Assembly: GCA_010093815.1 (NCBI GenBank)
Contig: ML996585.1
Reading direction: 5' to 3' (one strand)
Origin: Pseudovirgaria hyperparasitica
Taxonomy: Eukaryota
Length of the DNA: 41,121 nucleotides
Shown: piece by piece, positions 5,501-41,121 of the stretch
Layout: each line of letters opens with the position of its first letter
How positions within the stretch are numbered: position 1 is the stretch's first letter
Program-made: the position numbers and the translations under genes
The notes under the pieces: generated by a model
Seen by the model: the letters and a program-made list of their open reading frames with translations, nothing else
Told to the model about the DNA's origin: nothing
Databases searched by the model: none

Positions 5501-6015
5501 CTATATAGAACTATATACTCTATCTTATATCTAGTATATATAAAGCTACTAATATAGTACTACTATAATACGAAATAAACGTAAGAAGTATATAAGACTT
5601 CTACTAGATATAGAGGGTAATATACTTTACTAAATAATAAGTATAAGAATATAGGGGATATATAGAATATACTTTTACTATACTATATATATAAGTTAGT
5701 ATCTACTATTAAGTACTACTATATATAGACTAAACCTAGATATAGTATAGATACCTAATAGAGATAGACTTAAATTAGATTATATAGAAGATAAAGAATA
5801 ATCTAGACGTCTCTCTAGACTAGTAGAACCCTTAGAAGCTTATATAGACTATATAGTTATAGATCTAGAATAAATAGAAGAAAGTTCTCTAGACCTATTA
5901 GATATTCTAATAGAATAGATATCTAGAATAGATTTAAGAACTATAGAAAGAACTAAGTAGATAGATATATAAAGGGCTTATAAAAGTCTAAGTATCTATT
6001 CTTCTCTAAGCCTAA

Positions 6016-6616
6016 TGTAAGGAGGCAGGCTCTACGCACTAACTAACTATACTAAAAGGACCGAATCTTGAAGCTACTACTTCAAGGGTGGAGCACACTA
6101 CTTATATACGACTACTATATACATGTATAATTAACTAGCAGGCCACGTGCTCCTCACGTGCCTAACATTATCCCCCTTTTTAAAGGCGCGTGTCCTCACA
6201 CGTCGTGGGTATACTACCTTACGAAAAATAAACTAAACTAGCCGTAACGGGCCTAGTATAAACCATATGCATATATAACCAATACTCGCAATGCCGCCTC
6301 TAGCACTAGACACGCTAACTTACTATAGTAACGTTACTACCATATCATCCGTCACGTGTATAAAGCACACGTGACGTGGTAAGCTGAACGAAATCGTACG
6401 AAATTTAATAACGGTTAACTAGACCGAGAGTTGAACCCGTGACCCCGTAGTAGCTTTAAGATTATATAAGGAGGCGGGCTCTACGCACTAACCAACTACA
6501 CTAAAAGGACCGAATCTTAAAGCTACTGCTTTAAGGGTGGAGTATACTACTTATATATAACTACTACACACATGTATAATCAACTGGCAGGCCACGTGCT
6601 CCTCACGTGCCTGACA
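6016..6616 (-). mobile_element. TRIM (non-autonomous miniature LTR retrotransposon), 601 bp
   Basis: 152-bp LTRs at 6016-6167 and 6465-6616 (TG...CA; the start of the 6465 copy is RIPed to TA); 5-bp TSD CCTAA at 6011-6015 and 6617-6621; minus-strand PPT AAAAAGGGGGATAA at 6168-6181; 297-bp non-coding interior. The empty site is visible in LINE copy E (~38480-38510). Confidence 0.95.
6413..6511 (-). promoter_or_regulatory. tRNA-like element with Pol III A-box and B-box spanning the TRIM 5' LTR/leader junction
   Basis: Minus strand: A-box-like TAGTGTAGTTGG at 6503-6492, stem CGTAG (6485-6481) / CTACG (6450-6446), then GGGTC, then B-box GTTCAACTC at 6436-6428 within a CGGG/CTCG stem. Confidence 0.6.
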
Positions 6617-7204
6617 CCTAAATAGAAGCTATAGAACTTCTATACTATCTATATTAGAGAAGTATTCTAGACACGTCTCTATAGTATAAAGTATATAGCT
6701 AGAGAGATATAATATAGTACTATCTTATAATATATCCGGACCTCTATATATAGAGATAATTACTTATCTATATAATAAGGACCTCTAATATTATATAGTA
6801 GCTTAATAAGTACCCTAAGAAGATTACCTAGTAGATACTTATATATCTCTCTCTTCCTTAATACTAATAGACCCGGATATATATACTAGATAAGACTAGA
6901 TATATACTAGATAGACCCCGGTATACGCCGGAAGAACCCTAGGAGAACCCTAATTAATAGTTAAGGATAACCCTTAACTAATAACCTCTATATCTATATA
7001 TACTATCTAAGGGTAAAATAATAGTAATATAGACTATAGACTAATAGACGTACTCTATAGCTATATACTTAAGATAAAATAGAGGTTTAGTAAGATATAG
7101 TTATAGATATAAGAAAGTTTTTCTCTATAGAGTTTCTTCTTATATAGTAGCTTAGACTAGAGAAGGTATAGACCTATAGAGTACTACTCTACCTAGTTAT
7201 ATAA

Positions 7205-7299
<95 letters not shown>

Positions 7300-7344
7300 N
7301 NNNNNNNNNNNNNNNNNNNNNNNNNNNNNNNNNNNNNNNNNNNN
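7300..7344. other. Assembly gap (45 N)
   Basis: Run of N between the LINE A tail and the middle of LINE B. Confidence 0.99.
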
Positions 7345-10300
7345 AAATATACTAGCTATATTAAGAGAGAGTAGTATTATTATATATCTCTACTTCTATA
7401 TAGTCTAAATAACTTTAAGAATATATTAGATAGTAGTAATTAGAGAGCTTCTAGTCTTTACCTTCTAGTTTATTAGAAGAAGATTATATTTCTATACTAT
7501 AGTACTTATCTTCTTTATAATTATAGTTTTAATTATTTACTAAGATAGAAGAGAAGAGTAATTAGTCTCTATCCTTTTAGAGAGCTAGAATTCTTCTCTA
7601 GTTTTAGAAGTAGAATAATATAGATAGTTTAGAAGCTTTAGAGATAGTATTTATTCTTAATATATATCTAGAAGATAAGACTAATAAGTAGTAGAGTTAT
7701 CTATATAATATATTTAAGGTATCTATTTAGTATTCTATCTAGTCTAGATACTTTATTATTTAGAAGTACTTTAATAGTATTAAATATATTCTTCTCTATA
7801 ATCTCTATAGAGATATTAACTATATTTAGATATATAGTATTATTTATATCTAATAGGTCTACTAGCTCTAGGGGGGGAAATATAACTTCTTAGAGAATCT
7901 CTATCTTTTTAGAGCTTATAGTATATATTCTCCCCTAGTATATTAGGGGAGATATTAGTAGTAGTAGTATCGGTACGTTTATACTCTTAGCCTACTTTAC
8001 TATATACTATAGCTCTATAGCTTATTATATATATTTATTAGTAATTATATACTAGTATTTATATTATTTATTATAGAGAGTCTTATTATAAACCTAGATT
8101 ACCTTCTTCTATTCTTTCTATATCTCTACTATCTAGATATAATATATATATATATATATAGTCTTCTAGCTTTCTATCTACTTTCTTATATTTAAGGTAT
8201 ATCTCTTATATCTAGAGACTTATATATTTAGTATAGTATACATTTATCTCTAGAGCCTTAGAGGGCTTAAAGAAGGACTTATATAGCTCTATCTATAGCT
8301 AGACTATTAGATATATTAATTATAGAGAGATCTAGAATTATTAATTCTAGATTCTCTATATATTTCTTCTAGTTAGTATCTTTCTAGAGCTATCTCCCCT
8401 ATTATTTATTAGGCGTAGATATATCTATTTTAGTCTTTATATACTTATAGTTAGAGTCTATCTATATCTTATTTAGGTAGTAGTATTATATTCTATAGCT
8501 TATATATTCTATAGTAAGGGTAAGGTTAAGTATAGATTCCTTCTTATTCTATTTATATTTCCTCTATATAATTTAATTAACTAGTATAAGAAGATATAAG
8601 AGGTTATAGTATCTTATATATAGTTCTCTTACTCTAAGTTCTTTTCTTATAACTATTAGACCTTTCTACTATCTATAGTAGAGATTAAAGATCTAGAAGA
8701 ATATATTATTCTAGTACTATAATACCTTCTAGTATAGTATCTAGTATAAGTAACTCTCTATAATTATAGATATTATAGATATAGAGAGACTCTATATTTA
8801 TCTAGAGGTATAATATTATCTAGAGATTATCTTATTCTATATAGAACTATTCTAAGAGTAGAATTAATTTATATATATAGAATAAGACTCTTCTATCTAG
8901 GCCTAGAGAGTAGATAGTATAGTATCTTAGGTATATTATTAGTTTATTAGTTTAGTAGTATTTATATAGCTTCTAGATAGCTATTATTATAATATCTATC
9001 TCTTTAAGAAGCGTAGTCTAGTTTTTCTATTTATATTATATATTTATCTATATAATAAGAAGTATATCTTAGCTTCTTATTAGATACTAGAAAATACTTA
9101 AGTCTATATACTAGTAGTATTAAGGCGTAACTATCTCTATATAGTAGCTACTTTAAGAATACCCTAGGGTTAGTCTATCTTTCTCTATATAGTATACTAT
9201 TATATATTATTTTCGCTCTCTTATAGATTAGTTAGTATATATATTTATAAATAAGATTAGAGTAGATAGTAGAGACCTTATAGTCTAGTATATCTATCTT
9301 ACTTCTCTTACCTTTATAGTATTAATATATTTAGTAACTTATTTATATTTTATATATATTACTAACTAGAATAGGTGTTTTCTATTATAGTTAGAGTACT
9401 TAGTAGTATCTTTATTATATATATAGTCCCTCTAGGTTTTATATAGGTATTTCTAGATACTATAGTTCTATTAGTATTATATATAGATAGTCTTCTAAGA
9501 GTATCTTTATATAGTATATCTATATCTCTAATAGTTAAAGTATTAGATTATTATCTATACTCTATTCTATAGCTTTACTATAAATAATTCTCTCTTAGCT
9601 AAGAAGTCTTTTTATATAATCTAATAGATAATAGTAGAATCTTAGAGCTCTACTATTATAGTAGAATCTTAGAGCTCTACTATTATAGTAGAATACTTTT
9701 TTAATTTTATCTTAATCTCTTATATATTTTTCTACTATACTTTTATAATCTTAATTCTAGAATACTTCTAGTTATTAGATTACTCTATTTATTTAATATT
9801 ATTAGTTATAATAATATATTTCTAGATAGAGACTATATATATCTATATTAAATATATATTAGTATAGATAGATATACTAGAGAAGATATTATTAATTATA
9901 TTTAGATTATAGAAGATAGTCTACTAGACTATATTAATAGTAGTAATTAGTATTATATCTTCTAGAGTAAGTTTAGCTATAATTATATTTAACTATATTT
10001 CTTTTTATTTATTAATCTTATTAATAATATTCTTTAGAGATATCTTTTAGATCTATATAAGAACTTTCTTATTCTAGATAATAATCTATATATTATATAT
10101 TTCTTCCTTAGATATTCTTAGTATTTAAGCTATTCTAGCTATACTATCTAATAGTACTATAACTTATATCTAAGTAGTTAGATATTTCTTTTAGATAAGA
10201 CCTTTCTAGATTCTTAGTAGACTAGTCTTAATCTAGTCTAATTTAGATTCTAGACTTAATTCTAGTATCTATTTTACTTCTATAGTAAGCTTCTTAATAT

Positions 10301-10839
10301 TCTAGACTAGACTCTAAAAGATACTAAGAAAAGTAGTCTCTTCTTTCTTAATCTCTCTTTCTATATATATTATTTAGTAGTTAATCTTATCTAGAAGAAT
10401 ATCTCTAACTAGAGTTCTCTCTTTATTCTTTATCTATAGTATTTTATACTTTTAATTATTTATTATCTTTTAGATAGAGGTTTAATTATTCTAGAATATT
10501 CTACTATATAGCTATTTCTACTATATTAGTATTAGGGATATACCTAGTAGAAGCTAGAATATATTAATATCTAAGGCCTCTATAGTTATTAGTTAAGGGC
10601 TACTCTTAACTAATAAAAAGAAAGTTAATATATTAGTATTTAGTAGTAGTAGTCTATACTTATATCTCTAAAGAGTTTTTAAGTATATATATTTAGTATC
10701 TCTATATATTAGTAATATTATATTTCATATACTATATATATATTAGAGGTTATTATACTTAGTATACTCTATTAATTAATATATATAAATTACTATATTA
10801 CCCTAGACTAATCTATTTAGTCTCTTAGAGTATAAGAAG
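7345..10839 (-). mobile_element. Tad1-like LINE copy B (5' UTR, ORF1, APE, start of RT; 3' part lost in the gap)
   Basis: Reverse-complement match to copy A and colinear with copy C up to the shared 5' end (...TATAAGAAG versus ...TGTGAGAAG at 21181). Very heavily RIPed. Confidence 0.9.
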
Positions 10840-11440
10840 AATTTAAGATAATTTTATTATATAGATATCTCTATATTATCTAACTATTACTTAGAACTAA
10901 GTAATTCTATAATAGTAACCTTTATATTATATACTTACTTAACTCTATATATCTTAGTAGAGTATATAAAAACTAGTATATAAGAAGGTAGCTATTATAG
11001 AATTTAAATCTATAATATTAGATAATAAATACTTCTAGTAATATAGTATACTACTACTATACTACCTAGCTAATAAGAAGAAGATAATAGTAGTAGAGAT
11101 AGTTTAAGCTATTAATTATATAGAAAAGCTTAAGAAATTAGAGACTTAATTATTATAGACTAGATAGATAGTCTCTAAAAAGGTATATAAGACTTATTTA
11201 TATAAATTCCCTCTATTTTAAGTATATAGTTATTAATATAGATGTTTAGAGTTCTACTTAAATTATATAGTTTATTAGTAGATTGGCTTATTAGTAGATA
11301 TATTAACTTAGTATAAGACTTAAATGAATTATAATTTGCATAGCATTTTAGAGAAACCGGGCCACCCAACTTAATTAGCCTCGTAGCCTAATTAAACTAC
11401 CAAGTGCTCGACTTTAACTACTTAAGCCTTCTCTAACGTT

Positions 11441-12970
11441 ATGGATACTAATGCGCTTATCGATCTCGTCTATAAGGTGTAGGGCCAACTTTAGATCGAC
11501 TAGATAAACGAGACCTATAGAATGGTCCGTCTCTATTAGTGGGTTTTAACTTTCTATCCTAATAAGCTTCCCTATTAACTTAACGGTACCTTTTACCATA
11601 GTGCATTTAATACCGGTATAAAGATAGTCTTTAGCGATAACACTACCTAGATAGTTCGTTTTCCTCGTGTAGGGATAGTCTATAACGACTACGCTAACGA
11701 GAAGGTTACTAAGAAGGTAACGGCCCTTAATCTTATATATAATAAGACTAAAGTTCCCGTCCTAAGAGTCTAGGCGTAGGGCCCCGCTACCTGCAATCTA
11801 CTTAGTCTAGGTCCGTTTATTATGATAGACTTTATTAACGGTATAAGCGTTAGTAACCTTCTTAAGAATCCTAACGCCGAGCGCCCTACTAGACTTATAA
11901 GGGAGAACATTAGCGATAGTAACATTGAAGTTATCTATAGATAGTTGGCGAATTTTCTACTTTAGCTCTTTGAGCTCGATTTCGACCGGATCGGTAGCCT
12001 ACTATCGCTAACGGCTAAAGCCTAAAGCTCTACACCGACACGCCCGCTAACATTTAAAGTACATAGTATTCTATAAGATAGAGGAGTTGATACCTTCGGT
12101 ATACTTATTACTTTCCTTTTCTCTTCTCTTCCCTAATACTCTAATTAAGTATATAAACTAAGTAAATGATTTATAGATAACCGATGCCAGGGGTTTATAA
12201 CAACGACCGAGTATTTTCAATATGTTATCGGGTAGGACTAGGAGCAGCTCGTTCACTAGCCAAACTCTGTTTTTGGTTTATATAACGCGAAAAACAAGTA
12301 TATAGCGTTTAAGGCCCTAAAAGCCCTAATACCTAAGTTAGTAAACGCGAAGTATAACTACTATAAGTTTAAGCTAATATACGACGATCTTAGCTTAGTA
12401 AATTTAATTATCTAAAGTAGAGAAGATCTTACCGTCGTTGGAGTAGTGGACCTCGAGTAGTTATATATTGGACCCGCCCAGCTATTTGGCTTAGTACCAT
12501 GGTAGCTTCTCTAAGATAGACCCGTTAATAGCGCGTGGGACTACGAGGGCGATAAGCCGCCTAAGATCGCTACCTGGTACTTTAAGTACCTAGAGATGTT
12601 TATCCGTATCTTGTAGGAGGAGGAGAAAAAAATACTAGGGCATAAAGAGAGAGAGCTCTCTAGTCTCGTTAAGTAGTCGTAAGCCTCTAGGGCCATGTAG
12701 CTATATATACTTCTCTTATCCGGCTTTAACGACTATCGTAGCTTTCCTTTTATATAGCTACGCTAGCATTTAGGGGCTACTAAGTGGGCGAAGCGTAAGG
12801 AGGAATGTAATAACCTAGAAAAGCTTAAGGCATTCGCGGCGCAAAAGGTTAGAGAGTTAGATAAGTATAATAAAGCCTTAGAGAAGAGGGAGGGGGATAA
12901 AGTACTCGTGGATAGCGGGAAGATGATAAAGGAGGTATTCATTATAAACGCTCTGTACTATAGTGCGTAA
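11441..12970 (+). pseudogene. APH-family (aminoglycoside/choline phosphotransferase, kinase-like) gene, RIP-inactivated
   Basis: ATG at 11441, intron 12099-12176, TAA at 12970, one continuous frame with RIP stops. Motifs: SAFN..IKIVF.D...*IVRFP, KVPVLRV*A*G, LGPFIMIDFING, LIYDDLSLVNLII (HGDL..N-like), VVDLE*. Confidence 0.88.
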
Positions 12971-13089
12971 CCCTGTGCTTTATAAGTGGAGGTTCGTCAT
13001 CGTTATTTGTAAGTTAGGTTTCCACGGTCTATAAGGTAGCTTAGTAATCGTTGGGGGCTTCTATCCTAAACCTACGCTAGCTAGAATAG

Positions 13090-13577
13090 TAAGCTATAGA
13101 ACTATAGTATATAGTAAAGTAGACTAAGAGTATAGATACTCTAATACTACTACTACTAATATCTTCTCTATAATACTAGAAGATAATATATTCTATAAAC
13201 CTAGAGAAAATAAAGATCTTAAATAAGATTATATTCTCTTCTCTAGAACTAGTAGATCTATTAGATATTAATAATATTAAATATCTAGATATAATTAATA
13301 TTCTCTAGAAGGTTACTAAAGAAGATATATTTAATACTATTAAGATACTACTAAATAATAAAGTATCTAGACTAGATAGAATACTAAATAGAGATATTAA
13401 GGATACTATATAAGCTACTCTACTACTTATTAGTTATATATTTTAAATATATATTAAGAATAAATATTATCTCTAAAGCTTCTAAGCTATCTATATTATT
13501 ATATTATTAAAGCTAGAGAAGAATTCTAGGTCTCTAAAAGAATAGAGACTAATTACTTTTCTTTTCTATCTTAGTAA
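13090..13577 (+). mobile_element. Tad1-like LINE fragment D (ORF2 linker and RT start), cut by an LTR insertion
   Basis: Matches copy A ~4110-4595; contains NKVSRLDRI (de-RIP NKAPGLDGI). Confidence 0.85.
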
Positions 13578-13807
13578 TATAAGAAGAGATAGGTATAGAT
13601 ATATATATAATATTCCTTAGATAAGGAATATATACTTAAATAGAGTTATATAATAGAATCTAGCTATAATAGACTATTATATAATAAATAGATTAGTAGA
13701 GTATAGCTTAAAGATAATAAGAATATAGTATAATTCTTAAAGTAAAGACTAGATAGAGAGAGAACTAAATATATAGAGAGACCGCTCCTTATATATTCCT
13801 CCTTATA
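13578..13807 (-). repeat. LTR, copy 1 of 3
   Basis: Near-identical to 22856-23067 and 40893-41121. Confidence 0.9.
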
Positions 13808-13949
13808 TATTCTAGATTCTTCTCTCTATTAATAATAGAAATCTTCTAGACCTCTAGACGTACGTATATATTCTATAGCTCTAGTAGTCTCCTTAGAATA
13901 GAATAGAGTAGAGTAGAACTCTACTTAGACTCTCTAGAGTAAGAGTCTA

Positions 13950-15862
13950 TATATAGAGAACTAAGTGAAAATGAATTAGAAGAAGACGAAAATTACATAG
14001 ATAATGAGTCTATATATAATTTAAATACTCCTAAAATTACAGCCGAGTCGGGTGATAATTATAGTTAGAATTAATTTATAAATACTAGAGAAAATTAACC
14101 TAGACTCTCTAGAGGGTCTAGAGACTCTAGATAATAACCTAGATAGTCTATAGACTCTATTAATTCATATTTAGAAGAGGAATTAGCTTATACTAATAAT
14201 AGTAATATTAGTTCTAATACTATGTGTTATTATACTTATAATAGTCTATTTGAATTTAGTACTTATAATATATCCTTAGATATTATAGAGCCTAAATTAT
14301 ATAAACAAGCTATAAAAAGTACACATGCTATAGAATGGAAAAATACTACTATTAAGGAGTATAATAACTTATTAAGTTAAAATACATAGGATTTAGTAGA
14401 TAAACCTAAGAATAGTTCTACTAATATAATCTCTAGTAGATGGGTATTTAAAATTAAATTAAACCTAGATAATACCATTAATAAGTATAAAGCTAGATAG
14501 GTAGCTAGAGGTTTTCTATAAAAATATAGAATAGATTACGTAGAAACTTTTACTTATACTACAAGACCTATAGTAATTCGTTTATTACTACTTATAGGCG
14601 GGTTATATAACCTTAAAATACATTAATAGGACTTTAAATTAGCTTTTCCTAATACTAAATTAAAGGAAACTATATATATATACTAGCTAGAGGGGTTTAT
14701 AGACTCTAATTACCCTAATAGAGTCTATAAATTAAATAGAGCTTTATATAGACTTAAATAATTAGCTAGAGAGTGGTAAGACCTACTTAAGGATATATTA
14801 ATATCCTTAAAGTTCACTTAAATTATAGCTAAAAATGTAGTCTATATTAGAGATAATCTAATTATTTCAGCCTATATAGACGATATATTAGTTTTTATAC
14901 CTAATACTAAAGATATAGATAACTTCTATTTAGAGATAACTAAGTACTCTAAATTAGATATATCTAATCTAGGGTAAGCTAAATATTACCTAGGAATAGA
15001 AATAAAGAGAGATAGAACTAAAGGTTCTATTATATTATCTTAATCTTCTTTTATTAAGAACTTATTAATTAAGTTTAATAAAGAGAATATAAAGCCATCT
15101 AAAATACCTTTATCTCTAGGTGTTAAATTAGATAAAAACCCCTTATAAGCTAAATTAAAAGATATTAGATAATTCTAAAGGGAAATTAGTTCTCTTATCT
15201 ATTTAACTAGTCTAACTAGATGTAACCTAAAATATCTAGTAGGCTATCTAGCTAGATTTATATCTAATCTAAGTCTAGAATACTTTAAGGCCTTAAATAA
15301 GCTATAGTAATATATATTATTTTCTAAGGATTTAGAAATGGAGCTCTATATTAATAAAGACTCTAAATCTAATAATATAATAGCTAAAGGTTATATAGAC
15401 TTAGATTGGGGGGGGGATATATCTAGAAAAAGTACTACTAGATATATATTCCTTATAGAGAATAACCCTATCTCCTAGGATTTAAAATTATAAAAAACTA
15501 TAGTACTTAGTTTCTATAAGGCTAAATATATGGCCCTTAAGGAAGTAACTAAAGAATTATTATATATTAAGTCTCTTATTACTTAAATTCCTATATTAAA
15601 TAATATAGAGATTAAGGACTTATATATAGATAATTAATTAGCTATAGAAATTATAAAGAATCCAGCCTATTATGCTAGAACTAAGTATATAGACATTTAA
15701 TACCATTTTATTAGAGATAATTACCTAAGGAAGGTAATTAATCTAATATATATGTATACTAAGAACTAAATAGTAGATAGTCTAACTAAGGCAGTTAACT
15801 ACTCTATATAGAAGTATTTTATAGACTCTATTAATTTAATTAATAGAGCTAAAAACCTATAA
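13950..15862 (+). pseudogene. pol: Ty1/copia pol fragment (RT and RNase H), 5'-truncated
   Basis: EPKLYKQAI, SRWVFKIK, YKAR*VARGF, ALYRLK*LAREW, SAYIDDIL (~14867-14890), GYIDLDWGG, RTKYIDI*YHFIRD, IVDSLTK. Its PPT (ATTAAGGGGGTA, 21203-21214) and probable LTR start lie beyond LINE C. Confidence 0.93.
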
Positions 15863-15883
15863 AAATAAAAAATAGTATATAAG

Positions 15884-15900
<17 letters not shown>

Positions 15901-15923
<23 letters not shown>

Positions 15924-18900
15924 TTGTATAACTAGGTAGAGTAGTACTCTATAGGCCTATGCCTCCTCTAGTCTAAGCCACTATGTAAGAAGAAACCCCA
16001 TAGGGAAAAACTTCCTTATGTCTATAACTACATCTCGTTAAACCTCTGTTTCGTCTTAAGTATATAGCCATAGGGTACACCTATTAGCCTATAGCCTATA
16101 TTACCGTTATTTTACCCTTAGGTAGCACGTGTAGGTGCGGAGGTTATTAGTTAAGGGCTGCCCTTAACTAATAATCGGGGTTCTCCTAGGGTTCTTCCGG
16201 TATATGTCGGGTTACTACTAGCGTATACCGGGTCTCTTCCGGCATATATTTCCGGGTCTACTAGTACTAGAGGAGTAGTAGATATATAAGTATCTATTAG
16301 GAGACGTCCTTAGAGTACTTATTAAGCTATTATACGACATCTAAAGTCTTCATAACGTGGATAAGCCATTACCGTTATATATAGAGGTTAGGGCATATAG
16401 CTAGATAGTAGCGTATTATACCTCTCCGGCCGCACGTCTTATACTATAGGGAGGTATCGGGAACGCCTCTCTTATAGATATAGTATAGAAGTTCTATGGC
16501 GCCCGTTCGGGCTTAGATAAGTATAGATGCTTAGGCTTTCGTTAGCCCTTTATATATCTATTTACTCGGTTCCTTCTATGGCCCTCGAATCTACTCTAGG
16601 TACCTATCCTACTAGAAGGTCTAGTAGGCACGGAGTGTCTCTTTCTACTTATCTTAAGTCCACGACCGTATATTTTTCACGAGTTCTTAAAGGCTCTACC
16701 GGTCTAGGAGAGCGTCCGGGTTATCTCGGACTTCTTATACTACTTAACTAGAGTCGGCTTCTATTAAGTACCTATACTATATTCGATTCCGGCCTATATA
16801 TAGGAGTACGCGGTAATATATACTAATTCGTGCACGTAGCGCGGCGAAAGTATATTCTGCGTTTTCTATACGTTCCTATACTTATTATTTAGTGAAGTAT
16901 ACTACCCTCTATATCTAGTAGAAGTTATATATACTTATGACGTCTATCTCGCGTCGTAGTAGTACCGTGTTAATAGCTTTATATACGCCTAATATAAGAC
17001 GGAGTATGCGGTTCTATATAGATTCGAGCTTTATTCGCCTAGTCTATATAAGGGCTATATACTAGTACTCGTGTCCGTACGTGAAGGCGGGTCGTGCTAT
17101 AGATATATATAGCTAGCGTGCCTTATCCCGGGCGGTTCCCTACGTGGAGGCTATAATCCGTTATATAGCGGCTTCTACCTAGAGGGCCCTAGAGATAGCG
17201 TATACCACTTATGGTCCCTATTTAAGCTTACTATCTAGTATAACTCCGAGCGCGCGTATGCTTTATACTAGTAGTTCGTTAAATGCGTCGATTCGGGGGC
17301 GTTATTCGCCTTCCCTAGTTGCCTATTTCCCTTAATGATTAATAAAGTACATAAGCTGGTATTTCTCCGGGGCGAACTTTACTCTATAGCGTTTTACCTA
17401 CTAGAGGCACCTCTTATAGTCCTGTTCTAGTCGTCTACACGTTCGGTTGGTATTATTATCGATGGCTAGGAGGTATATATTATCGGCGTATCCGACTACC
17501 TCTATATACTTTATTCCTTAAAGAAGGTCTACTATAAAGAAGAGGAATAGAATCGGAGAGATGGTACTCCCTTATAGGATGCTGCATACCGTCTCTTTAT
17601 ATTCGCTCTAGTACCTAGGGATATATATCTAAGTTATTCTTCCTATAAGGAATGACTATATAAAGCGTATAATCTATTCTAGTATTCGTCTTATCCGGAG
17701 ATTATAAATAAGTCTTATGTGGTTTACCTTATTAAACGCTCTGGCCATATCGAGGGAGAGGAGCGATACTACCCGTCCCTATTTCTATGCGGCCTAGACG
17801 ACTTTAATAATATATTAGATAGCTATTATTAGGGAGCTATCTACCTTTGCCTTCTGGTTCGGAGGGAGGAGATTATATTCCTATACCGCGGTACTTATCT
17901 TCTTCGCTATCGTAGCCTCTAGTATCTTACCTAGGTAGAAGAGAAGGGCGATTAGTCTCTATCCCTTTAGGGAGTTAGGGCTCTTTCCTAGTTTTAGGAG
18001 TATAATAGTATAGGCGACTCGGAAGCTCTAGGGGTGGTACCCCTACGTAACGTATACTTAGAATATATAAGTAATAAGCGGTAGGGTCGCTTTTATAGTA
18101 CTTTTTAGGCATTAATTTAGAATTCCATCTAGTCCGGGTGCTTTATTATTTAGGAGTATCTTAATAATATTAAGTATATCCTCCTCCGTAACTTCTTCGG
18201 GGATATCTACCGTATATAGATATTCGGCGCCGTGAACGTCTAATAGGTCTACTAGTTCCGGGAGAGGGAACATGGCCTCCTATAGAGCCTTAGTTTTCTT
18301 AAGGCTCGTGGAGTATATTCTCCCCTAATATATTAGGGGAGGCATAAGTAGCGGGGGTGTCGGAGTATCTACGCCCTTGGCCCATTTCGCTATGCGCCAT
18401 AGCCCTATTACGTATCATGTCTATTAACTAGTAATTATATACTACTATTTACGCCTTTCGTTATAGAAGACTTTATCGTGTTATCGTATCGCTTTCTTCT
18501 ATTCTTCCTATAACTCGGGTGTTCTCGTATAGTATACGCGTATATATAGCCTTCGGGCGTCTTATCTACTTTCCTATACTTAAGGAATCCCCTTTACTTC
18601 CAGGGGCCGGTATATTTAGTATAGTACGTGTTTATTTCTTATATTCTAATATATTTATAGGAGTGTCTATACGGCCTGGTCTATGGCTAGGTTGTTAGAT
18701 ATATCGACTATAGAGGGATCTAGGATTGCCGATTCTAGGTCCTTTAGATACTTTTCCTAGTTAGTATCCTTCTATATCTATTATCCCTGTTATTTATTCG
18801 GGGTATATACGTTTATTACGGTTTCTATATATTCGTAGTCGGAATCCGTCTATACCTAGCCTAGGTAGTAGTATTGGATCCGGTAACTAATATGCTCCGT

Positions 18901-21181
18901 AGCGAAGGTAAGGTTAAGCGTGGACCCGTCTTTATCCTATTTATATTTTTTCTATATAACTTATTCTATAGGTGTAAGTAGATATAGGAAGTCGTGGTAG
19001 CGGGTACGTAGTTCCCTTACTCTAAGTTCTTCCCTAACTATGGCTAGGCCTCTCTACCATCGGTAGTAGAGGTTAAAGTCTCCTAGGAGGATGTGTTACC
19101 CTGGTTCCATAGTACCCTCGAGTATCTCGTCTAGTATAAGTATACGTTATTAGTTATATATGTTATATATATATAGGGGGCCTATATCTATTTATAGGTG
19201 TAGTATTATCCTAAGGTTATCGCGCTCGGTATACAACCATAATAAGAGTAGTATTAACCTATAAATATAGAAGAGGACTCGTCTTTCTAGTCCTAGAGGG
19301 TATATAGTGTGGTATCCGGGGTGTATGGTTAGTTTACTCGTCTGGTAGTGTTTATAGGGTTCCTAGATAGCGAGTATTATGGCCCCGGTCTCTTCGAGGA
19401 GCGTCACCTAGTTCTCTCTTTTATATTATATATTTACCTATATAATTTAGAGTATATTCTAGTCCCTTATTAGGTACTAGAGAGTATATATACCTATATA
19501 CTTATTCCTTAGAGGCGCGACTATCCTCGCGCGGTAGCGGCTTTAACTATGCCTTTTAGTCATCCTATCGTCTTCGGAATAGTCTACTATCCTACCTAAC
19601 TATCTTCCGGAGGGGAGGTTAGGGGTATTATAAAGGAAGGGCTCGTGGTAGATATTATATTCTATAACTATCTTACGCCTGTCGCTTTTATCGTATAAAT
19701 GTATTCTATAACCTATTTACGTTTTATACACGTTAACGACTATAACGGGTGTTTCCCGTCGTAGTTTAAATACTATACTATATCCCTATTTCTTAGTCTA
19801 TCTCCTCGCGGTTTATAAGGGCACTTCTAGATGGCGTGGTCTCCACGGTACTATCCGCACTTAGTCTTCTATAAGTACCTTTATATAGTATGTCTATACC
19901 CTTAATAGTTAAAGCACTATATTATTACCTATACTCTATTCTATGGCTCGGCCATAAGGAGCTCTCCTTCTATTAGGAATCCCTTCTATATAATATGTTA
20001 TACGAGGGCGGGGTCTCGGAGCTCTATAATTATAGTAGAGTGTTTTTTCGCCGTCGTCTTAATCGCCTATAGGTTCTTCTACCACGCTTTCATAATCTTA
20101 ATCCCTAGGTATTTTCGCGCGTTGGATTATTCTATACGCGTAATATCCTCCGCTCTAATAGCCTATCCCCGCACGGGTACTATATATACTATAATTAGGT
20201 ATATGGCTGCCCTAATAGACGCGCTAGGGAAGATACTACCTATCGCGTTCGGATCTCGCGAGATGTTTTACTATATAGTATTCGTTATAGTAGTAAGTAC
20301 TATCCCACCTAGTATAACTTTAGTAGCCACGACGCTTAACTACATTCCTTTCTATTCGTTAATCTTATTTATAATTTCCTTTAGGGATACCTATTAGACC
20401 TACGCTAGCGTGTTCTTATCCTAGATTATAATACGTATACTATATACTCTATCTATGGTCCTAGTGGTCCTTAGTGCGGTAGCTCCGGGTATTACTATAA
20501 TCTAAGCCCACGTATTAGGGCGCTTACCTTAGGATAGCTCTTCCTAGATTCTCCGTAGGCTAGCTTCCATTCGGTTAAGCCTACTACTAGGTTCCTCTCG
20601 TGGCGACTTCCTTTCTTCCTCCGTGATTCCTCTTAGGTTCTAGATAAGGTCCCGGAATATATAAAGGAGGGTCTTCTTTCCCTTCTCGGCGTCCCTCTCT
20701 ACACGTATTACCTAGTATTTAATTTTATCTAGGAGGGTCTCCCCTCTCGGGGTCCCCTCGGTCTAGGTTATCTATAGCGCTTCGCACCCTTAGTTAGTTC
20801 CTATATTTTAGATAGGTGTCTGGCTGTCCACATTAATGTTACTATATGGCCGTTTCTACCATACTAGTGGGGGTATATCTAGCGTATACCGGGGTGTTAC
20901 GATGCCTAAGGCCGCCATGGTTATTAGTTAAGGGTAGCCCTTAACTAATAAAAGGGGGTCGGCGTATTAGTATTTATTAGATATGGTCTATGCTCGTGTT
21001 ATCGAAGAGTCTTCGAGCGTATATATATAGTATCTCTATACGTCGGTATCATCGCGTATTATACGCTATACGTACGCACGTGTATCGGAGGTTATTATAC
21101 TCGGTGTACTCTATCGTTTAATGTATATAAATCGCTGTTTTACCCCGAATTGACTAGTTTAGTCTATTGGGGTGTGAGAAG
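15901..21181 (-). mobile_element. Full-length Tad1-like LINE copy C (~5.3 kb), the least RIPed copy
   Basis: ORF1 ATG at 20918 with CCHC knuckles (~19700-19916). ORF2 ~19470-16240 has APE (ILAI*EPY, LGDFNL) and RT (NKAPGLDGI, VGYADNIYL); no RNase H recognised. (ATT)n tail at 15901-15924. (TA)n on both flanks is the probable TSD. Confidence 0.95.
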
Positions 21182-21480: not shown

Positions 21481-22855
21481 ACTAGACTCTATAACTTCTT
21501 TAGAGACTATAGACTAGAAGAGTTATATTAATATAAGCTAGTACTAGCTTATATTAGATTAAGTAGGAATCGGAAGTATATAGATAGAGATAATATATTA
21601 GTTAATATATTAGTTCTTAGTATACTAAAATAGACTATTATAGATAATTTCGGATATTTATAGAATACTATTAGTATTTAGTATACTATTTAATATATAT
21701 TATCGATTCTTAATAATAACGCACGTAAATTATATATATATAGACCTTTCTATAGCTATAGATAGTCGTCTCTTTAAGCCTTTTAATTAAATATACTTTA
21801 TATACTATATATTATATCCCTTAGTCTTATTCATTCAAGATACCTTCTATACTATCTATTCTTCTAAGGGTATTATATATATCTATTCTATATATACCCT
21901 TTTAACTCTTATAATAATAATATAATAATTCTTTATATACTCTTAGACTTCTTAAAAGAAAGATATATATTTATTTCTACTCTAGTTCTAGAGGTATAGA
22001 CATTCTTCTAGAGTAGAAATAGAGATAACTCTAGAATAGAGATAAGCTAGAGTATAATAATCTCTATATTAGAGATATAGTAATATCTATAATATATATA
22101 GATATATATCTAGAGTATAAGTAGCTCTAGAATAACTATATAGACGTTTCTCTAGAGTAGAACTAGCTCTAGAGTAGAAGTAGACATTTCTCTAGAGTAG
22201 AACTAGCTCTAGAGTAGAGGTAAAATAACGTCTATAGATATATAACCTCTATATTAGAGGTATAATAACGTCTAGAGTAGCGATATAATATCCTCTAAAA
22301 TATAATAGATACTTATTTATCTATTTAATAGATCTATCTTCTCTAGAATACTTTTTATAGAGTTCTTCTAGAGTTTCCCTTTACTCTAGAAGTCTTATAT
22401 AATAGAATATATAAAGTAATAGTATAAACTATTTTTTATATATTATATCTATTATAATAAACTCTATAAAATAGATATTCTCGCTAGCTATAAGTATACT
22501 AGATAATTTTCTAAGGGTTCCAGGGCCTAGAAACTCTAAGTATACTATTCAAATATTATAGAGATAGAATATATCCCTATAATAAATAATAGAGTCCCCT
22601 TTAATATAATAATTAAAAGGTTCCCTTTATATATATATATAGATAGAGGTAAATATATATATATATAAAGGTCTAGAGTATATAGTAGGATAGAAGTTAT
22701 ACCTTAGATACTAGGTAATCTCTATTACTAGAGGCCTAGCTAGTAGGGACTATACGCTAGTAGATCTCTTTCTATTAAGATAACTTAATAGAGGTAAGCC
22801 GTATAATTTATAATAAATAGTTAAATATAAGCTATAAGCCTCTAGGCTTATAACC

Positions 22856-23067
22856 TATAAAAAGGGTAGATATAAATAGATATATAATATTCCTTAGATA
22901 AGGAATATATATCTAAATAGAGTTATATAATAGAATCTAGCTATAATAGACTATTATATAATAAATGGATTAGCGGAGTATAGCTTAAAGATAATAAGAA
23001 TATAGTATAATTCTTAAAGTAAAGACTAGATAGAGAGATAACTAAATATATAGAGAGACCGTTCCTT
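22856..23067 (-). repeat. LTR, copy 2 (5' LTR), truncated at 23067
   Basis: Matches the other copies up to CCGTTCCTT, then switches to CATTAGG instead of ATATATTCCTCCTTATA. Confidence 0.9.
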
Positions 23068-29932: not shown

Positions 29933-32900
29933 TAGATTATTACCATTTATACGTGCTAGTAATTTAGTATAGCTAGAATAATAACGCCGAGTATAACTAG
30001 TAGTCTTATAATTATAGTAAAACGTACCTATAAGCGTCTTAGGTTTAGGGTAAATATTAGCTTTATAGCTAATATTCTAATAGTTATTATATATATATAT
30101 CGACCCTCTTAGATACTTAATAGACTTATATTCTTTAACGTTATATTTATAGTAGACTAGCGGCTTACGGGGCTTAGTACTATTAGTAGTTTATTAATTA
30201 CTTTATTCTCCCCTCTCTCTAATACTAAGTATAGAGTAACTATATTAGAGATTAGGTATATTAGAGGGTAGAGGGAGGCTATCTAGATCGGGGGTCGTGC
30301 ACGTGTATATCGTATAAATCTTAGAGTACTTATTCTATATCTCGCCAAGTACGCTATCTAGGACTTTCTACCTCTTAAGAGATATAAAGTTAGTAATAAT
30401 AACTATTATCTATTTAGCGCGCGTAATAGTAATAATATTATAGTTTACTTCTAAGAGGAAGCTAAAGCGATTGGTTTAGACCGGGTTAATAAGGACTATA
30501 TCGTTATTATAACCCTAAGAACCGTCCTATAAACGCTATTAGATAAGCTTCTATACTAGCTTAGGTAGAGTATTAAATTAAGCTTTATCCGCTATAGTAA
30601 GTATAGTTAGAAGCGAGTTTCTAACTATCCCTTTAAATAGATTACGTTAGGTAGCGTATATAGAAATATAGAGTACGCGATTAAGTATAATACTATAATA
30701 GAAGAGCTTAGTAATAATCTACTAAGTAAAACGTAATAAGTCTATATTATATATTAAGTTATTTACTATATACACGTAATCCCTATTAACGTTAGTATAT
30801 ATAATATATTAATAGCTATAGATTCTAAATATTTATTAAACGGTCTCTACGAGTAGTATATTAATATTATTTATTATATAGGGCGAGGTCGTTAGCTCGC
30901 CTAAGTAAGTAATTAGTAATATAACGTTTATTATTCTAGGAACTAAGTATTCTAACTCGGTAAGGCAAGTAGTTAGAAAACTATATTATATCTAGCGCTT
31001 TATAAAGGAGATTCTCTAGTTCGCGGTCTATATATTAGTACTATTATACTAGTAGGTATCGAGCTAGTATAGGTCGCTAATATAAATAAATATCGGTTAC
31101 TATTCTATAGTAGTATAATTAACGATAATTCTAAGTATATTACTTTTAAGGATATATATAGCCTCTTCTATTATAACTAAAATTAGATATATATTATAGG
31201 CTACCTTAGCGATATTTATAATATATAGGGTCTCTATATAAATCTAGATATAGATAGTAACTAGGTCCTAGATAGCGAGGTATAGCTCATTTATTCTATT
31301 ATACTTCTTCTTAGATATATCCTTATTATAAGCGTAATATTTATAGATAGTATATAATAGTTAAGCCGTTTCTTTCTCGAAATTCTTAGAGATCCATTTA
31401 TATTAGTATTAAGATTTAATAAGTCTAACGACCTCGAGTATAATATAACTAGTATATAGTTCCTATAGACGAGCACGGAGATCCGTACTATATTCTAATA
31501 GTTATTTACTATAGTCGGCCTAGGCTTACGTAAGGATAGTACCATCTATTATATTATTCTAGGTTAGCCCGATAAGAGGGTCGCCGTAATAAGATAGTCT
31601 AGCTATAGTAAAGAAAACCTCTTAATTAATAGCTTTGGGGCATCTTTAAAGAATAACTAGTATCTTTAGAGACTTATAGTAAGTAAATATATTACTTATA
31701 TATTTATATACTTTTCTTATAGCGTTGTCGTAGGTTTCGTTAGTTAGGCTAATAATAATATATATATATATTCTATATATTTAGATAGAACCTAGTATAG
31801 AAAGGTACGCTATTACATCGCTAGATAGAATAACTACCTTAGTAGTATAAGTAATAATAGAAGTACTATTTATTTCGTTAATTAGAAGTATAGCTAGTAG
31901 TAGATAAAGCTATAAATAGCTCTTACTAGCTCCTCCATAGCCGTGAAGTAGAAACTAAGCCCTAAGTACGTCCGTTATCTATATATATATATACTATTAT
32001 TAGAGAGATAGTTCTAAATATATAATATCCTAGAGATCGTAGAATCTTTTATAATCTTTAATATAGTGGTTATAGTCGATAGATTAAAGATTTAGATAGT
32101 TATTACTAAGTATTAGATTCTATATAGAGGGTAGTAAAGGGAATAGAATACTAGAGTAGACTTTAGATAATATTAGAAGTATATATATATTAGTAACGGG
32201 GCTAGTAATAGAACCTTCGTCGCTAATAATATCGTGACTATATTCTATATTTATATTCTTATTATTATCTAGGGATATAGATAATTTAGAAAGAGTAATA
32301 AGGGTATTCTAAGGCTCCGTACTATAATCTAGAATCTCGTTATTAGAGTTAGAGGACCTATATATTAGAGATATAGATACCGAGTCTACGATAATATTAA
32401 GGACTATTATATTAAATATATTCTAAGCGGCGTGGTTATCTACGCCGCCGTCTCTAGAAGCTTATATAGTATAGTAGGTTAGTTTCTAGTACGTATTAAT
32501 ATATTACTTAGTAAGCTTATTATAGATTTATATACTAACTAAAGCTAGAAGGTTCGTAAACCCTATAAGCGTAGTAAGAGATAACCTAATTATACTTAAA
32601 CTAGTATCGCTAGTCTAAATAAAATGTTTAGGATAAGCTTAAGTTATATTAGTAACCGTATCTATTAATATAATTAGTACCTTAGATACTTTAGAAAGAT
32701 ATCTAACCTTATTAAAGACTTTTAGAGCGAGGCATTTAAATAGAAGAATATCTAGGTAAAATTAAAGGACTTTAAAGCGGTATGTATCGTTATTATAATC
32801 CTTTAAATCTACTTTAAGGTACCTATAACTACCTAGTTCTATATAATAGAATCCTTTTGTATTAATAGAATAGATAATAGCTAAGAGCGCCTAAGTAATA

Positions 32901-37873: not shown

Positions 37874-40800
37874 ATAATAATAATAATAATATTATTATAT
37901 AACTAGGTAGAGTAGTTTACTCTATAGGCGTATACCTCCTCTAGTCTAAGCTATTATATAAGAAAAAACCTTTATATAAGGAAAAACTCCCTTCTCTCTA
38001 TAACTATATCTCGTAAAACCTTTATATTATCTTAAGTATATAGCCGTTAGGAATATCTATAGGTCTATAATCTATAGTACTATTATTTTACCCTTAGATA
38101 GCACGTATAGAGTATAGGGGTTATTAGTTAAGGGTTACCCTTAACTAATAATTAGGGTTCTCCTAGAGTTCTTCCGGCGTATATTAGGGTCTATCTAGTA
38201 TATACCTAGTTCCTTCTAGTATATATATCTAGGTCTATTAGTATTAGGGAAGAGGGAGGTATATAAGTATCTATCGGGCGATCTCCTTAGGGTACTTATT
38301 AAGCTACTATATAATATTAGAGGTCCTTATTATATAGATAAGCGATTATCTCTATATATAGAGGTCCGGGCATATTATAAGATAGTATTATATTATACCT
38401 CTCTAGCTATATACTTTATACTATAGAGATATATCTAGAACGCCCCTCTAGTATAAGTAGTATAGAAGTTCTATAACTTCTATTCGGGCTTAGAGAAGGA
38501 TAGATACTTAGGCTTTTATAAGCCCCTTATATATCTATCTACTTAGTTCCTTCTATAGTCTCTAGATCTATTCTAGATATCTATTCTATTAGAATATCTA
38601 ATAGATCCGGAGGACTTCCTTCTATTTATTCTAGGTCTACGACTATATAGCCCGTATAAGCTTCTAAGGGTTCTACTAGTCTACGGAGATATCCGGGTTA
38701 TCCCCGATCTCCTATATAATTTAGTTTAAGTCTATCTCTATTAGACTCTTATATTATAGTTAAGTCTAGTCTATATATAGTAGTACTTAGTAGTAGATAC
38801 TAACTTATATATATAGCGCGGCGAAGGTATATTCGGCGTGTCCCACGCGTTCCTATACTTATTATTTAGTAAAGTATACTACCCTCTATATCTAGTAGAA
38901 GTCTTATATACTTATTATATTTATCTCGCGCTATAGTAGTACTATATTAGTAGCTTTATATATACTAGATATAAGGCGGAGTATACGGTTCTATATAGAC
39001 TTAAGCTTTATTCGCCTAGCCTACGTAAGGGCTATATACTAGTACTTATATCTATATATAAAGGCGGGTCGTGCTATAGAGACGTATAGCTAGCGCGCCT
39101 TATTCTAGGTGGTTCTCTATATAGAGGCCGTAATCTAGTATATAGCGGCTTCTACCTTAAGGGCCCTAGATACTATATATATAATCTATAGACCCTATTT
39201 AAGTTTATTATTAATTATAACGCTAAGTATATATATACTCTATATTAGTAGTTTAGTAAAAGCATCTATTCTAGAACGTTGCTCTCCTTCCTTAGTAGTC
39301 TATTTCCTATAGTAGTTAATAAAGTATATAAGTTAGTATTTCTTAGGGGCGAACTTTACTCTATGGCGCTTTACCTACTAGATATATCTCTTATAGTCTT
39401 ATTTAAGGCGTTTATAGGTTAAACTAGTATTATTATTAATAGCTAGAAGGTATATATTATTAGCGTATCCTACTACCTCTATATATTATATCCTCTATAG
39501 AAGGTCTATAGTAAAGAAGAGGAAGAGAATTAGAGAGATAGTACTTTCTTATAGAATACCATATATCGTGTTCTTGTATTTACTTTAATATCTAGAGATA
39601 TATATCTAGGTAATTCTTTTGGCGAGGAAGGACTATATAAACTTTATAATTTATTTAAGTATATATCTCTTCTATAGGTTATAGATAAGTCTTATATAGT
39701 TTACCTTATTAAATGCACTAGCTATATTAAGGGAGAGTAGTATTACTATACGTCTCTACTTCTATATAGTCTAGATAACTTTAAGAATATATTAGATAGT
39801 AGTAATTAGGGAGCTCCCGGTCTTCGCCTTCTAGTTCACTAGAAGAAGGTTATATTCTTATACTATAGTACTTATCTTCTTCGCGATTATAGTCTTAAGT
39901 ATCTTACTAAGATAGAAGAGAAGGGTAATTAGTCTCTATCCTTTTAGAGAGTTAGGGTTCTTCTCTAGCTTTAGAAGTATAATAGTATAGATAGTCTAGA
40001 AGCTTTAGGGGTGGTACCTATTCTTAGTATATACCTAGAAGATAAGACTAATAAGTAGTAAGGTTATCTATATAGTATATTTAAGATATCTATTTAGTAT
40101 TCTATCTAGTCTAGGCGCTTTATTATTCGGGAGTGTTTTAATAGTATTAAGTATATCTTCTTCTATAATCTCTACGGGAATATTAACCGCGTCTAGATAT
40201 ATATTATTATTAATATCTAATAGGTCTACTAGCTCTAGAGGGGGAAATATAACTTCTTAGAGGATCTCTATCTTTTCGGGGCTCGTGGTATATATCCTTT
40301 CCTAGTATATTAAGGGAGATATTAGTAGTAGTAGTATCGGTATATCCGCGCTCTTAGCCTACTTTACTATATACTATAGTTCTATGGCCTAGTATATATA
40401 TTTATTAGTAATTATATACTATTATTTATATTATTTATTACGGAGGGTTCTATTATAAGATTAGATTACCTCTTTCTATTTCTTCTATACCTTAGTTATC
40501 TAGATATAGTATACACGTATATATAGTCTCTAGGCTTCCCTTCTACTTTTATATATTTAAGGTATACCCCTTATATCTAGGGGCTTATACGTTTAGTATA
40601 GTATATATTTATCTCTTAAGTTTTAGAAGGCTTAAAGAAGGACTTATACGGCTCTATCTATAGCCGGGCTATTAGATATATTAACTATAGAGGGATCTAG
40701 AATTACTAATTCTAGGTTCTCTCTATACTTCTTCTAGTTAGTATCTTTCTATAGCTATCTCCCCTATTATTTATTAGATATAGATATATCTATTACGGTC

Positions 40801-40892
40801 TCTATATATTCGTAGTTAGAGTCTATCTATATCTTACTAGGGCGGTAATATTATACTCTATAGCTTATATATTCTATAGCGAGGGTAAGGTC
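37874..40892 (-). mobile_element. Tad1-like LINE copy E (tail, 3' UTR, RT, to the end of APE), interrupted by an LTR
   Basis: Colinear with copy C 15901-18910; (TAA)n at 37874-37891. Confidence 0.93.
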
Positions 40893-41121
40893 TGTGAAAA
40901 GGGCAGGTATAAATAGATATATAATATTCCTTATATAAGGAATATATATCTAAATAGAGTTATATAATAGGATCTAGCCGTAATAGACTATTATATAATA
41001 AACGGATCGGCGGAGTATAGCTTAAAGATAATAAGAATATAGTATAATTCTTAAAGTAAAGACTAGATAGAGAGAGAACTAAATACATAGAGAGACCGTT
41101 CCTTATATATTCCTCCTTATA
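40893..41121 (-). repeat. LTR, copy 3 (solo or 3' LTR), inserted in LINE E
   Basis: TGTGAAAAGGGCAGG...TTCCTCCTTATA, 229 bp, matching 13578-13807. Confidence 0.9.

Follow-up and report, generated by a model that had tools for sequence, protein, structure and literature searches.

A miniature LTR retrotransposon with a self-complementary primer-binding site inside a tRNA-like module, a candidate split RNA polymerase III promoter

Within the 41,121-nucleotide stretch of contig ML996585.1 of Pseudovirgaria hyperparasitica that we analyzed (hereafter the window), the minus strand carries, from 6616 to 6016, a 601-bp non-coding element with long terminal repeats (LTRs), bracketed by the 5-bp target-site duplication (TSD) TTAGG (Table 1). 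Its two LTRs are 90% identical, and every one of the 16 mismatches among their 152 positions is a C/T or G/A transition. Short TG...CA direct repeats, a length below 1 kb, a primer-binding site (PBS), a polypurine tract and a TSD are combined with a lack of coding capacity (no stop-free frame of at least 120 codons in the open reading frame list of the window overlaps the element), and the element is thus a TRIM (terminal-repeat retrotransposon in miniature), a non-autonomous LTR retrotransposon. The first-pass annotation of this DNA had already called it a TRIM, a name that the LTRs, TSD, PBS, polypurine tract and non-coding interior bear out, and had seen a tRNA-like split promoter for RNA polymerase III (Pol III) across the point where the 5' LTR meets the leader; its observation is confirmed, and its interpretation is partly supported, as set out below.

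Structurally, the PBS (6463-6449) is the perfect 15-nt reverse complement of the element's own LTR at 6527-6513, at an offset of 1 from the LTR end, and the 3' LTR copy of that segment matches the PBS at 94% over 17 nt. A primer site does follow the LTR end, as previously annotated, though it is without tRNA-type character and complements the LTR instead, a feature that the first-pass annotation had missed. When the LTR was shuffled 20,000 times, the longest complement starting 0-5 nt past the LTR was 12 nt, and just 19 shuffles reached at least 10. For self-priming, a plant survey (PMC6317226) sets the rule that 10 or more complementary bp must begin within 0-5 bp of the LTR end, and the complementarity seen here falls within that rule. 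For an RNA started at 6527, folding predicts the primer/PBS duplex in the minimum-free-energy structure, with a hairpin of the D-arm-like segment inside the duplex loop and one of the T-arm-like segment directly after it (both segments are described below). Judged from sequence, this architecture indicates self-priming of the type known from Tf1, a mechanism that has also been proposed for Tj1 (PMC4600332), and we regard the self-priming PBS within the module as a more secure new point than the Pol III promoter. A short LTR hairpin offers an alternative partner to the PBS, since its 3' arm overlaps the self-primer. It recurs at 6067-6086 on the minus strand, where, near the RNA 3' end and with U3 present, it could hide the primer sequence; at the RNA 5' end the hairpin would lack its upstream arm. 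We also considered, and rejected, a leader freed by RNase P to act as the primer: the acceptor stem is absent, and the 3' bases that remain after such a cut would be unpaired.

Around this site lies the tRNA-like module. Read on the minus strand from 6511 to 6424, the sequence GGTCCTTT-TAGTGTAGTTGGTTAGTG-CGTAG-(30 nt, 6480-6451)-CTACG-GGGTC-ACGGGTTCAACTCTCGG matches exactly the string first noted, and since its A-box half belongs to the LTR and its B-box half to the interior, the module straddles the end of the 5' LTR (6465) and its boxes are complete only in the context of that LTR. In tRNA order, GTCCTTT (6510-6504) stands at the place of the 5' acceptor strand, 6503-6485 corresponds to U8 through the D arm and 6484 to G26; after the anticodon-like arm come the terminal CA of the LTR (6466-6465, TA in this copy), a single T (6464), the PBS followed by AC, the variable loop GGGTC (6445-6441) and the T arm (6440-6424). 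The D-arm-like segment keeps U8, G10, A14, R15, G18, G19 and A21, and its stem consists of three G-U pairs and one G-C pair. About 20 extra bases, which contain the PBS, separate the anticodon-like arm from the variable loop. The pairing of CGTAG with CTACG, earlier read as the anticodon-like stem, does exist, but we count it as an alternative pairing and prefer an anticodon-like arm at 6483-6467, because this layout keeps an equivalent of the 17-nt arm and makes the LTR end and the PBS a single insertion. The acceptor stem, which the first reading had found to pair poorly, is absent: nothing downstream pairs with the 5' acceptor strand. Since the B-box lies beyond the LTR, 20 nt past its end, only the 5' LTR together with the leader makes a complete candidate promoter; the 3' LTR is adjoined by the TSD and lacks a B-box.

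At the sequence level, the likeness to tRNA is significant by several measures. A strict motif was defined as U8, G10, A14, R15, G18, G19, A21 and at least three D-stem pairs, followed 15-90 nt later by a T-arm part of G53-TTCRA-N2-C61 with at least four T-stem pairs. Across both strands of the window, 14 D-arm rows, with duplicates among them, and a single T-arm fitted it; the only pair in the right order is this module. Such pairs numbered 7, 2 and 11 in first-order Markov simulations of 30 Mb each (0.4-2.2e-4 per 600-nt element), and the expectation is about 1.4e-4 per element. Weight matrices built from 25 class-I tRNAs of E. coli (columns 8-27 for the D part, columns 45-66 for the variable loop and T arm) gave a joint score of 38.05 bits (16.8 for the D part, 21.2 for the T part), a value that none of 20,000 simulated elements reached (mean -0.5, standard deviation 5.0, maximum 24.5). 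The runner-up anywhere in the window scored 7.2, the antisense strand scored -3.9, and five sampled training tRNAs scored 28-58 bits; on the antisense score, we rejected the reading of the module as an antisense copy of a read-through tRNA primer. Across a 40-Mb simulation, the D part reached at least 16.8 bits 370 times and the T part at least 21.2 bits three times, and a joint score of at least 30 never occurred. A search with nhmmer and the same tRNA alignment (E-value of at most 100) returned four matches in the window, the best two of which, 6446-6423 (E 0.086) and 6504-6484 (E 2.2), are collinear on the minus strand. Among the 17 columns conserved in at least 23 of the 25 E. coli tRNAs, 16 are kept (the exception is purine 57, A for G), and the module agrees with one tRNA at 32 of 42 positions. 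Evolutionarily, our reading of these sequence comparisons is that the two halves probably descend from a tRNA or from the head of a tRNA-derived short interspersed nuclear element (SINE). The proposal of a tRNA-derived fungal TRIM is borne out to this extent; as a concept it had already been published, in 2024, for Helenus/TRIMp3.

Table 1 Features of the TRIM and its target-site duplication (window positions).
Feature	Position	Strand	Basis
TSD TTAGG, upstream copy in element orientation	6617..6621		sequence reading; empty-site joints in other copies of the host repeat
5' LTR, 152 nt, TGTCAGG...CCTTATA; terminal CA changed to TA by a RIP-type transition	6465..6616	-	repeat searches
Two CACGTG palindromes in U3; function putative	6593..6609	-	sequence reading
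TATATAA box; starts 30 nt upstream of the first base of the self-primer (6527)	6551..6557	-	sequence reading
LTR hairpin, arms 6535-6528 and 6523-6516; putative structural role	6516..6535	-	sequence and folding
Putative self-primer and presumed start of R, AGTAGCTTTAAGATT; perfect complement of 6463-6449	6513..6527	-	inverted-repeat search, 15 nt, 100%
tRNA D-arm / A-box-like segment, TAGTGTAGTTGGTTAGTGC	6485..6503	-	motif, weight matrix, nhmmer, covariance-model alignment
Anticodon-arm-like hairpin TAGAG-CCCGCCT-CCTTA; 4 of 5 pairs; loop without U33 and R37	6467..6483	-	read by eye, no statistics
PBS; begins 1 nt past the LTR end; without TGG start; complements own LTR	6449..6463	-	repeat search, shuffles
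Variable loop and T-arm / B-box-like segment, GGGTC-ACGGG-TTCAACT-CTCGG	6424..6445	-	motif, weight matrix, nhmmer
Internal region, 297 nt, non-coding	6168..6464	-	sequence, open reading frame list
CACGTG-containing palindrome in the internal region (two CACGTG boxes)	6349..6377	-	covariance-model matches, sequence reading
T5 run specific to this copy; C>T of RIP type at 6227	6224..6228	-	contig comparison
Polypurine tract AAAAAGGGGGA, 3 nt ahead of the 3' LTR	6171..6181	-	sequence reading
3' LTR, 152 nt, TGTTAGG...CCTTACA	6016..6167	-	repeat searches
TSD TTAGG, downstream copy	6011..6015		sequence reading

Other copies of the element bear the marks of repeat-induced point mutation (RIP). Contigs of four public sequencing runs (X1-X4) were aligned to 5915-6720 at a likeness of at least 80%, giving 1742 aligned pieces from the 592,746 records of X1, 855 from the 180,325 of X2, five from X3 and four from X4; the contig figures that follow are k-mer depths of short contigs rather than copy counts, and statements about variants hold among the variants listed. 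Several contigs join the flanks across a 606-nt skip (6010 to 6617 or 6011 to 6618, with 4-5 bases fitting either side), which is the size predicted for an empty site (601 + 5 nt), and further contigs skip 609-615 nt with a few other letters in between; given the 606-nt joints, the host repeat also occurs without the TRIM insertion. Differences between copies are almost all transitions, and the window as a whole has a strong RIP signature (29% G+C, TpA/ApT of 1.61, (CpA+TpG)/(ApC+GpT) of 0.14). The best explanation is that the TRIM family was highly amplified and was subjected to RIP afterwards. Inside the window, blastn with the element found only itself and its two LTRs, and a search for relatives after purine/pyrimidine collapse gave scattered single 20-mers only; exact-pattern scans for the element gave no match in metagenome contigs, prokaryote genome contigs or viral contigs. 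The T5 run that the first-pass annotation had flagged as a possible Pol III terminator proves to be private to this copy: position 6227 carries the alternative base in all of the X1 depth (36 contigs) and in 19358 of 19623 units of X2, so that the sole T5 run of the transcribed strand (6228-6224) is a RIP-type change. At 6502 (tRNA position 9), G stands instead of A in 23246 of 76535 depth units, and likewise in a solo LTR of X3 whose flanks are of normal composition.

Three further observations concern variation within the family. The primer base 6519 (C>T) and its partner in the PBS, 6457 (G>A), both show RIP-type changes that keep the pair, and the 3' LTR retains the C; these matched changes may be a coincidence of two RIP events or may reflect a PBS inherited from the mutated primer of a parent. 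Some X1 and X2 contigs join the LTR start to a different 3' interior with a different purine tract (6143-6173), and the main leader contig of X3 and X4 has unlike sequence directly upstream of the PBS (6465), beside a restriction site and adapter. Possible sources of these joins are subfamilies or a helper that shares the LTR or the leader.

Functionally, the reading that we favor, with a probability of roughly 0.45, is that this RIP-degraded 601-bp TRIM carries a tRNA-derived split Pol III promoter module combined with self-priming. The RNA would start about 30 nt after the TATA box, at or near 6527, and, because its first 15 nt perfectly complement the site just past the 5' LTR, this leader would fold back onto the PBS and prime its own reverse transcription, as in elements of the Tf1/sushi type. 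A helper RNase H would then cut at the end of the duplex to produce the primer 3'-OH, after which minus-strand synthesis would copy U5 and R and jump to the 3' LTR. The tRNA-derived module would wrap the primer site, with the D-arm/A-box and the degenerate anticodon arm in U5 and the variable loop and T-arm/B-box in the leader, and would serve as an internal type-2 Pol III promoter of the kind found in SINEs and in Helenus/TRIMp3, with transcription starting just upstream of the A-box, at the self-primer. A Pol III promoter is the most likely use of the module, given that the A- and B-box invariants (16 of 17) were kept while the acceptor stem and the anticodon loop decayed; on the type of promoter, going by sequence, we favor Pol III with odds that are about even. 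Between the self-primer and the A box the distance is 10-24 nt, with the self-primer upstream, which fits the usual distance from start to A-box in type-2 promoters and would place it about where such promoters start. Pol III also tolerates a spacing of 30-90 nt between the boxes, upstream TATA boxes occur in Pol III genes of fission yeast and Neurospora, and a TATA box does not exclude Pol III in ascomycetes. The arrangement suggests a small parasite that furnishes its own promoter and its own primer.

From the perspective of tools that consider structure, though, the module is not a tRNA, as it has neither an acceptor stem nor a proper anticodon loop and is missed by tRNA finders, and this and several other results weigh against our reading. 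ARAGORN predicted no tRNA gene, whether introns were allowed or not; with lowered thresholds, its candidate c[6417,6497] is one of 82 (at 80%) to 305 (at 60%) candidates in the window, which is noise. Rfam at gathering scores gave nothing, and the tRNA family RF00005 had no match at E-values of at most 10 on 5900-6800 (901 nt) or on 6405-6520 (116 nt). A custom covariance model from the 25 class-I E. coli tRNAs reached 8.5 bits, which is noise level, with seven places in the window scoring higher (E 1.9 in the window, rank 8 of 31; E 0.029 within 6000-6640), and aligned tRNA positions 8-65 to 6503-6424 with an unaligned middle of 39 nt. Lack of a covariance-model signal had been named among the results that would refute the original proposal, and neither RF00005 nor the custom model gave a signal; the cause, we would argue, is a missing acceptor stem, a degenerate anticodon loop and an insertion of some 20 bases, and not a lack of tRNA ancestry. 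The matrix columns behind the joint score were picked with the hypothesis known, and the training tRNAs are bacterial. The TATA box and the two CACGTG boxes of U3 look like an ordinary RNA polymerase II (Pol II) promoter of an LTR, and a T4 run (6506-6503), downstream of the presumed start and ahead of the A-box, might terminate Pol III if four T residues are enough in this fungus; in yeasts, T4 terminates weakly. We found no helper element, and the window contains neither a helper nor a related copy; the Pfam scan there covered 14300-15799. Lastly, the C of the B-box motif GTTCAA (6433) is T in about 95% of the depth, a RIP-compatible change (58781 of 62056 depth units of X1, in 30 contigs, and 29448 of 32119 of X2). 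This position lies in CpA, the preferred target of RIP, and saturation is comparable at other CpA/TpG sites of the family (6519 is un-RIPed in just 8748 of 202428 X1 depth units); because its rate resembles that of these other sites, the change at 6433 neither supports nor refutes conservation of the B-box. The copy data as a whole are compatible with an ancestral consensus that had both A and B boxes, without proving it. Beyond tRNA, no 5S rRNA family matched at gathering score or at an E-value of at most 10, and a microRNA family of Rfam that hit the primer/PBS inverted repeat in the search at E-values of at most 10 scored 12 bits against a gathering score of 110 and was set aside as chance.

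The strongest competitor is an ordinary self-primed TRIM transcribed by Pol II, in which TATA and CACGTG boxes drive a capped transcript and the module is not a promoter; we consider it a real possibility, with odds well short of even. The module would then be what is left of a tRNA or SINE captured long ago, or else an RNA structure that aids the helper reverse transcriptase and RNase H at the priming complex, and in a structural variant of this explanation the two hairpins around the primer/PBS duplex would be comparable to the U5-IR stem-loop that Tf1 needs. The position of the TATA box, 30 nt upstream of the primer, the pair of CACGTG boxes in U3 and the T4 run right after the presumed start all speak for it, as do the hairpins of the D-like and T-like segments that flank the primer/PBS duplex in the minimum-free-energy fold and the use of Pol II by the self-primed elements described so far, among them Tf1, Tf2, Tj1, Maggy, Skippy, Cft-1 and Boty (PMC7175516, PMC4600332, PMC6934838). 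Retention of 16 of 17 A/B-box invariants after loss of the acceptor stem and anticodon loop is, however, the pattern of Pol III SINEs and of Helenus, a D-stem with three G-U pairs and a single G-C pair is weak as a structural hairpin, and the upstream TATA box is as compatible with Pol III in ascomycetes as noted above.

A second alternative leaves the transcript aside and changes the primer: a host RNA, such as half of a tRNA cleaved within its anticodon loop, would prime at the PBS, and the matching LTR segment would be the partner in a regulatory hairpin. We consider this unlikely. Anticodon-loop primers serve most families of fungal Helenus and their Copia helpers (PMC10886601), the window holds a RIP-degraded Ty1/copia reverse transcriptase (Pfam RVT_2, E 1.7e-44), and the LTR segment can pair locally with 6535-6528; yet the element's own LTR supplies a perfect 15-nt match, placed where the transcript should start, and the PBS complement, read as an anticodon stem-loop, closes no stem. 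Least probable, and in our estimate very much so, is a chance resemblance in which the D- and T-arm-like strings arose by accident, without tRNA ancestry, in an island of RIPed DNA that is richer in GC, as might be suspected from the silence of RF00005, ARAGORN and the custom covariance model, from the 82 window candidates that ARAGORN lists at 80% thresholds and from the very large scan out of which the finding was drawn, in which rare coincidences are expected somewhere, but which has to contend with a joint score of 38 bits, where 20,000 simulated elements peak at 24.5 and the runner-up in the window has 7.2, with only about 5e-6 such pairs per window as estimated from the single-part rates of the 40-Mb simulation, with an independent nhmmer ranking that picks both pieces, and with correct order, strand and spacing directly downstream of the presumed start.

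Returning to the reading of a split Pol III module with self-priming, its closest known counterpart is Helenus, a group of TRIMs with tRNA-derived sequence in their LTRs and conserved TRGCY/YGG and GGTTC motifs (Kojima 2024, PMC10886601), which is grouped with Cassandra and Ajax as TRIMp3. According to the same paper, the fungal members have 5-bp TSDs, are linked to Copia helpers and mostly use anticodon-loop tRNA primers, their hosts are only Pucciniales and two Agaricales (Agaricus and Coprinopsis; Table 1 of PMC10886601), no complementarity was found between the Helenus PBS and the tRNA-like part of the LTR, and Pol III use is presumed and stated by the author as unvalidated. Like Helenus/TRIMp3, the element described here is a non-coding LTR element of less than 1 kb with a PBS, a polypurine tract, a 5-bp TSD and A/B boxes, and encodes no functional tRNA; its box motifs in this copy read TAGTG...TGG (TRG and YGG fit, and CY is TG) and GGTTC. 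The defining feature of Helenus, however, A and B boxes within the LTR, is not found, since the B-box half is interior: the whole tRNA-like sequence of Helenus lies inside the LTR, whereas the LTR boundary of this element falls between its anticodon-like arm and its variable loop. The PBS of Helenus matches 3' ends or anticodon loops of host tRNAs and here matches the element's own LTR over 15 nt; Helenus in fungi belongs to basidiomycetes, whereas this window has the CpA-to-TpA RIP signature typical of Pezizomycotina, from which we infer a filamentous ascomycete; and Helenus was detected with Censor and tRNAscan-SE, whereas this module escapes ARAGORN and Rfam. Screens of LTR libraries against tRNAs, as used for Helenus, would tend to miss a split module, as would tRNA finders.

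The other comparisons each capture one side of the element. The Tf1/sushi-type group comprises Tf1, Tf2 and Tj1, with self-priming also proposed for Maggy, Skippy, Cft-1, Boty, Grasshopper and Afut1, and shares with our element the lack of a TGG-type PBS, a stretch of the 5' LTR at the presumed RNA 5' end that complements a site just past the LTR, over 11 nt in Tf1 and over 15 nt in the present case, and a 5-bp TSD. Its members are Ty3/gypsy elements that measure several kb, are autonomous and rely on Pol II for transcription, with RNase H cleavage shown for Tf1, whereas ours is a 601-bp non-coding element with a tRNA-derived module around the PBS, for which such a cleavage would be expected by analogy. 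A Ty3/gypsy chromovirus coding region is lacking, as the element is non-coding, and the sole confirmed reverse transcriptase relic in the scanned segment (14300-15799) is Ty1/copia. Cassandra, too, is a TRIM with internal Pol III promoter-like sequence that stems from a small-RNA gene, but it is a plant element with a 5S-derived type 1 promoter wholly inside each LTR, and no 5S match was found here. In tRNA-derived SINEs (SINE2), likewise non-autonomous and of high copy number, the A/B boxes also outlast the cloverleaf; SINEs, though, lack LTRs, PBS and polypurine tract and are mobilized by long interspersed nuclear elements, whereas this element has all the LTR-type hallmarks. A self-primed or Pol III-transcribed non-autonomous LTR element like this one was not found described for fungi or ascomycetes in the full-text collection that we searched. 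With tRNA-derived TRIMs already known in fungi, the element is best read as new in its split module and its self-priming PBS, together with the host phylum as deduced from the RIP signature. It may represent a third design of a Pol III-driven LTR parasite, and the first in a RIP-active ascomycete, in which an LTR-split promoter, a 15-nt leader acting as its own primer and LTR-type integration are combined, a proposal that we put forward tentatively and at less than even odds.

The rest of the window (1-41121) is RIP-saturated repeat DNA, in which just two stop-free frames are 120 codons or longer, both with junk-like translations. The copia relic mentioned above occupies 14300-15799 on the plus strand (stops read as X), and no direct repeat of at least 40 nt that could mark its LTRs occurs in 9500-19500; given this RVT_2 relic, Copia, the proposed helper class of fungal Helenus, is present in the genome. 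Large dispersed repeats appear only after purine/pyrimidine collapse (7345-8527, 16133-18963, 38110-40892, 13603-13807, 22852-23067 and 40889-41121), and they are several RIPed copies of other families, none related to the TRIM. A run of 45 N at 7300-7344 is probably an assembly gap, and the translation just before it, one repeated residue, suggests a simple repeat. D-arm-like strings at 32467-32485 and the ARAGORN candidates at 90% thresholds (18003-18077 and 32458-32573) are unrelated to the element. Within the TRIM itself, the internal palindrome at 6349-6377 folds as a hairpin or could pair two RNAs, and a role in dimerization or packaging is speculative.

Should Pol II turn out to drive it, the element would still be a clear case of self-priming in a TRIM that carries a fossil tRNA module, and would chiefly interest those who specialize in transposons. 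If the reading of a split Pol III promoter with self-priming is true, TRIMs with small-RNA promoters (TRIMp3) would extend from basidiomycetes, animals and plants to ascomycetes, and TRIMp3-like elements could ride on self-priming helpers and not just on tRNA-primed ones. The element would also represent a natural promoter asymmetry between two identical LTRs, and thus an answer to the problem of two identical LTR promoters, and, with its TATA box, two boxes and 15-nt primer, would offer a compact model for how Pol III transcripts enter LTR-type reverse transcription.

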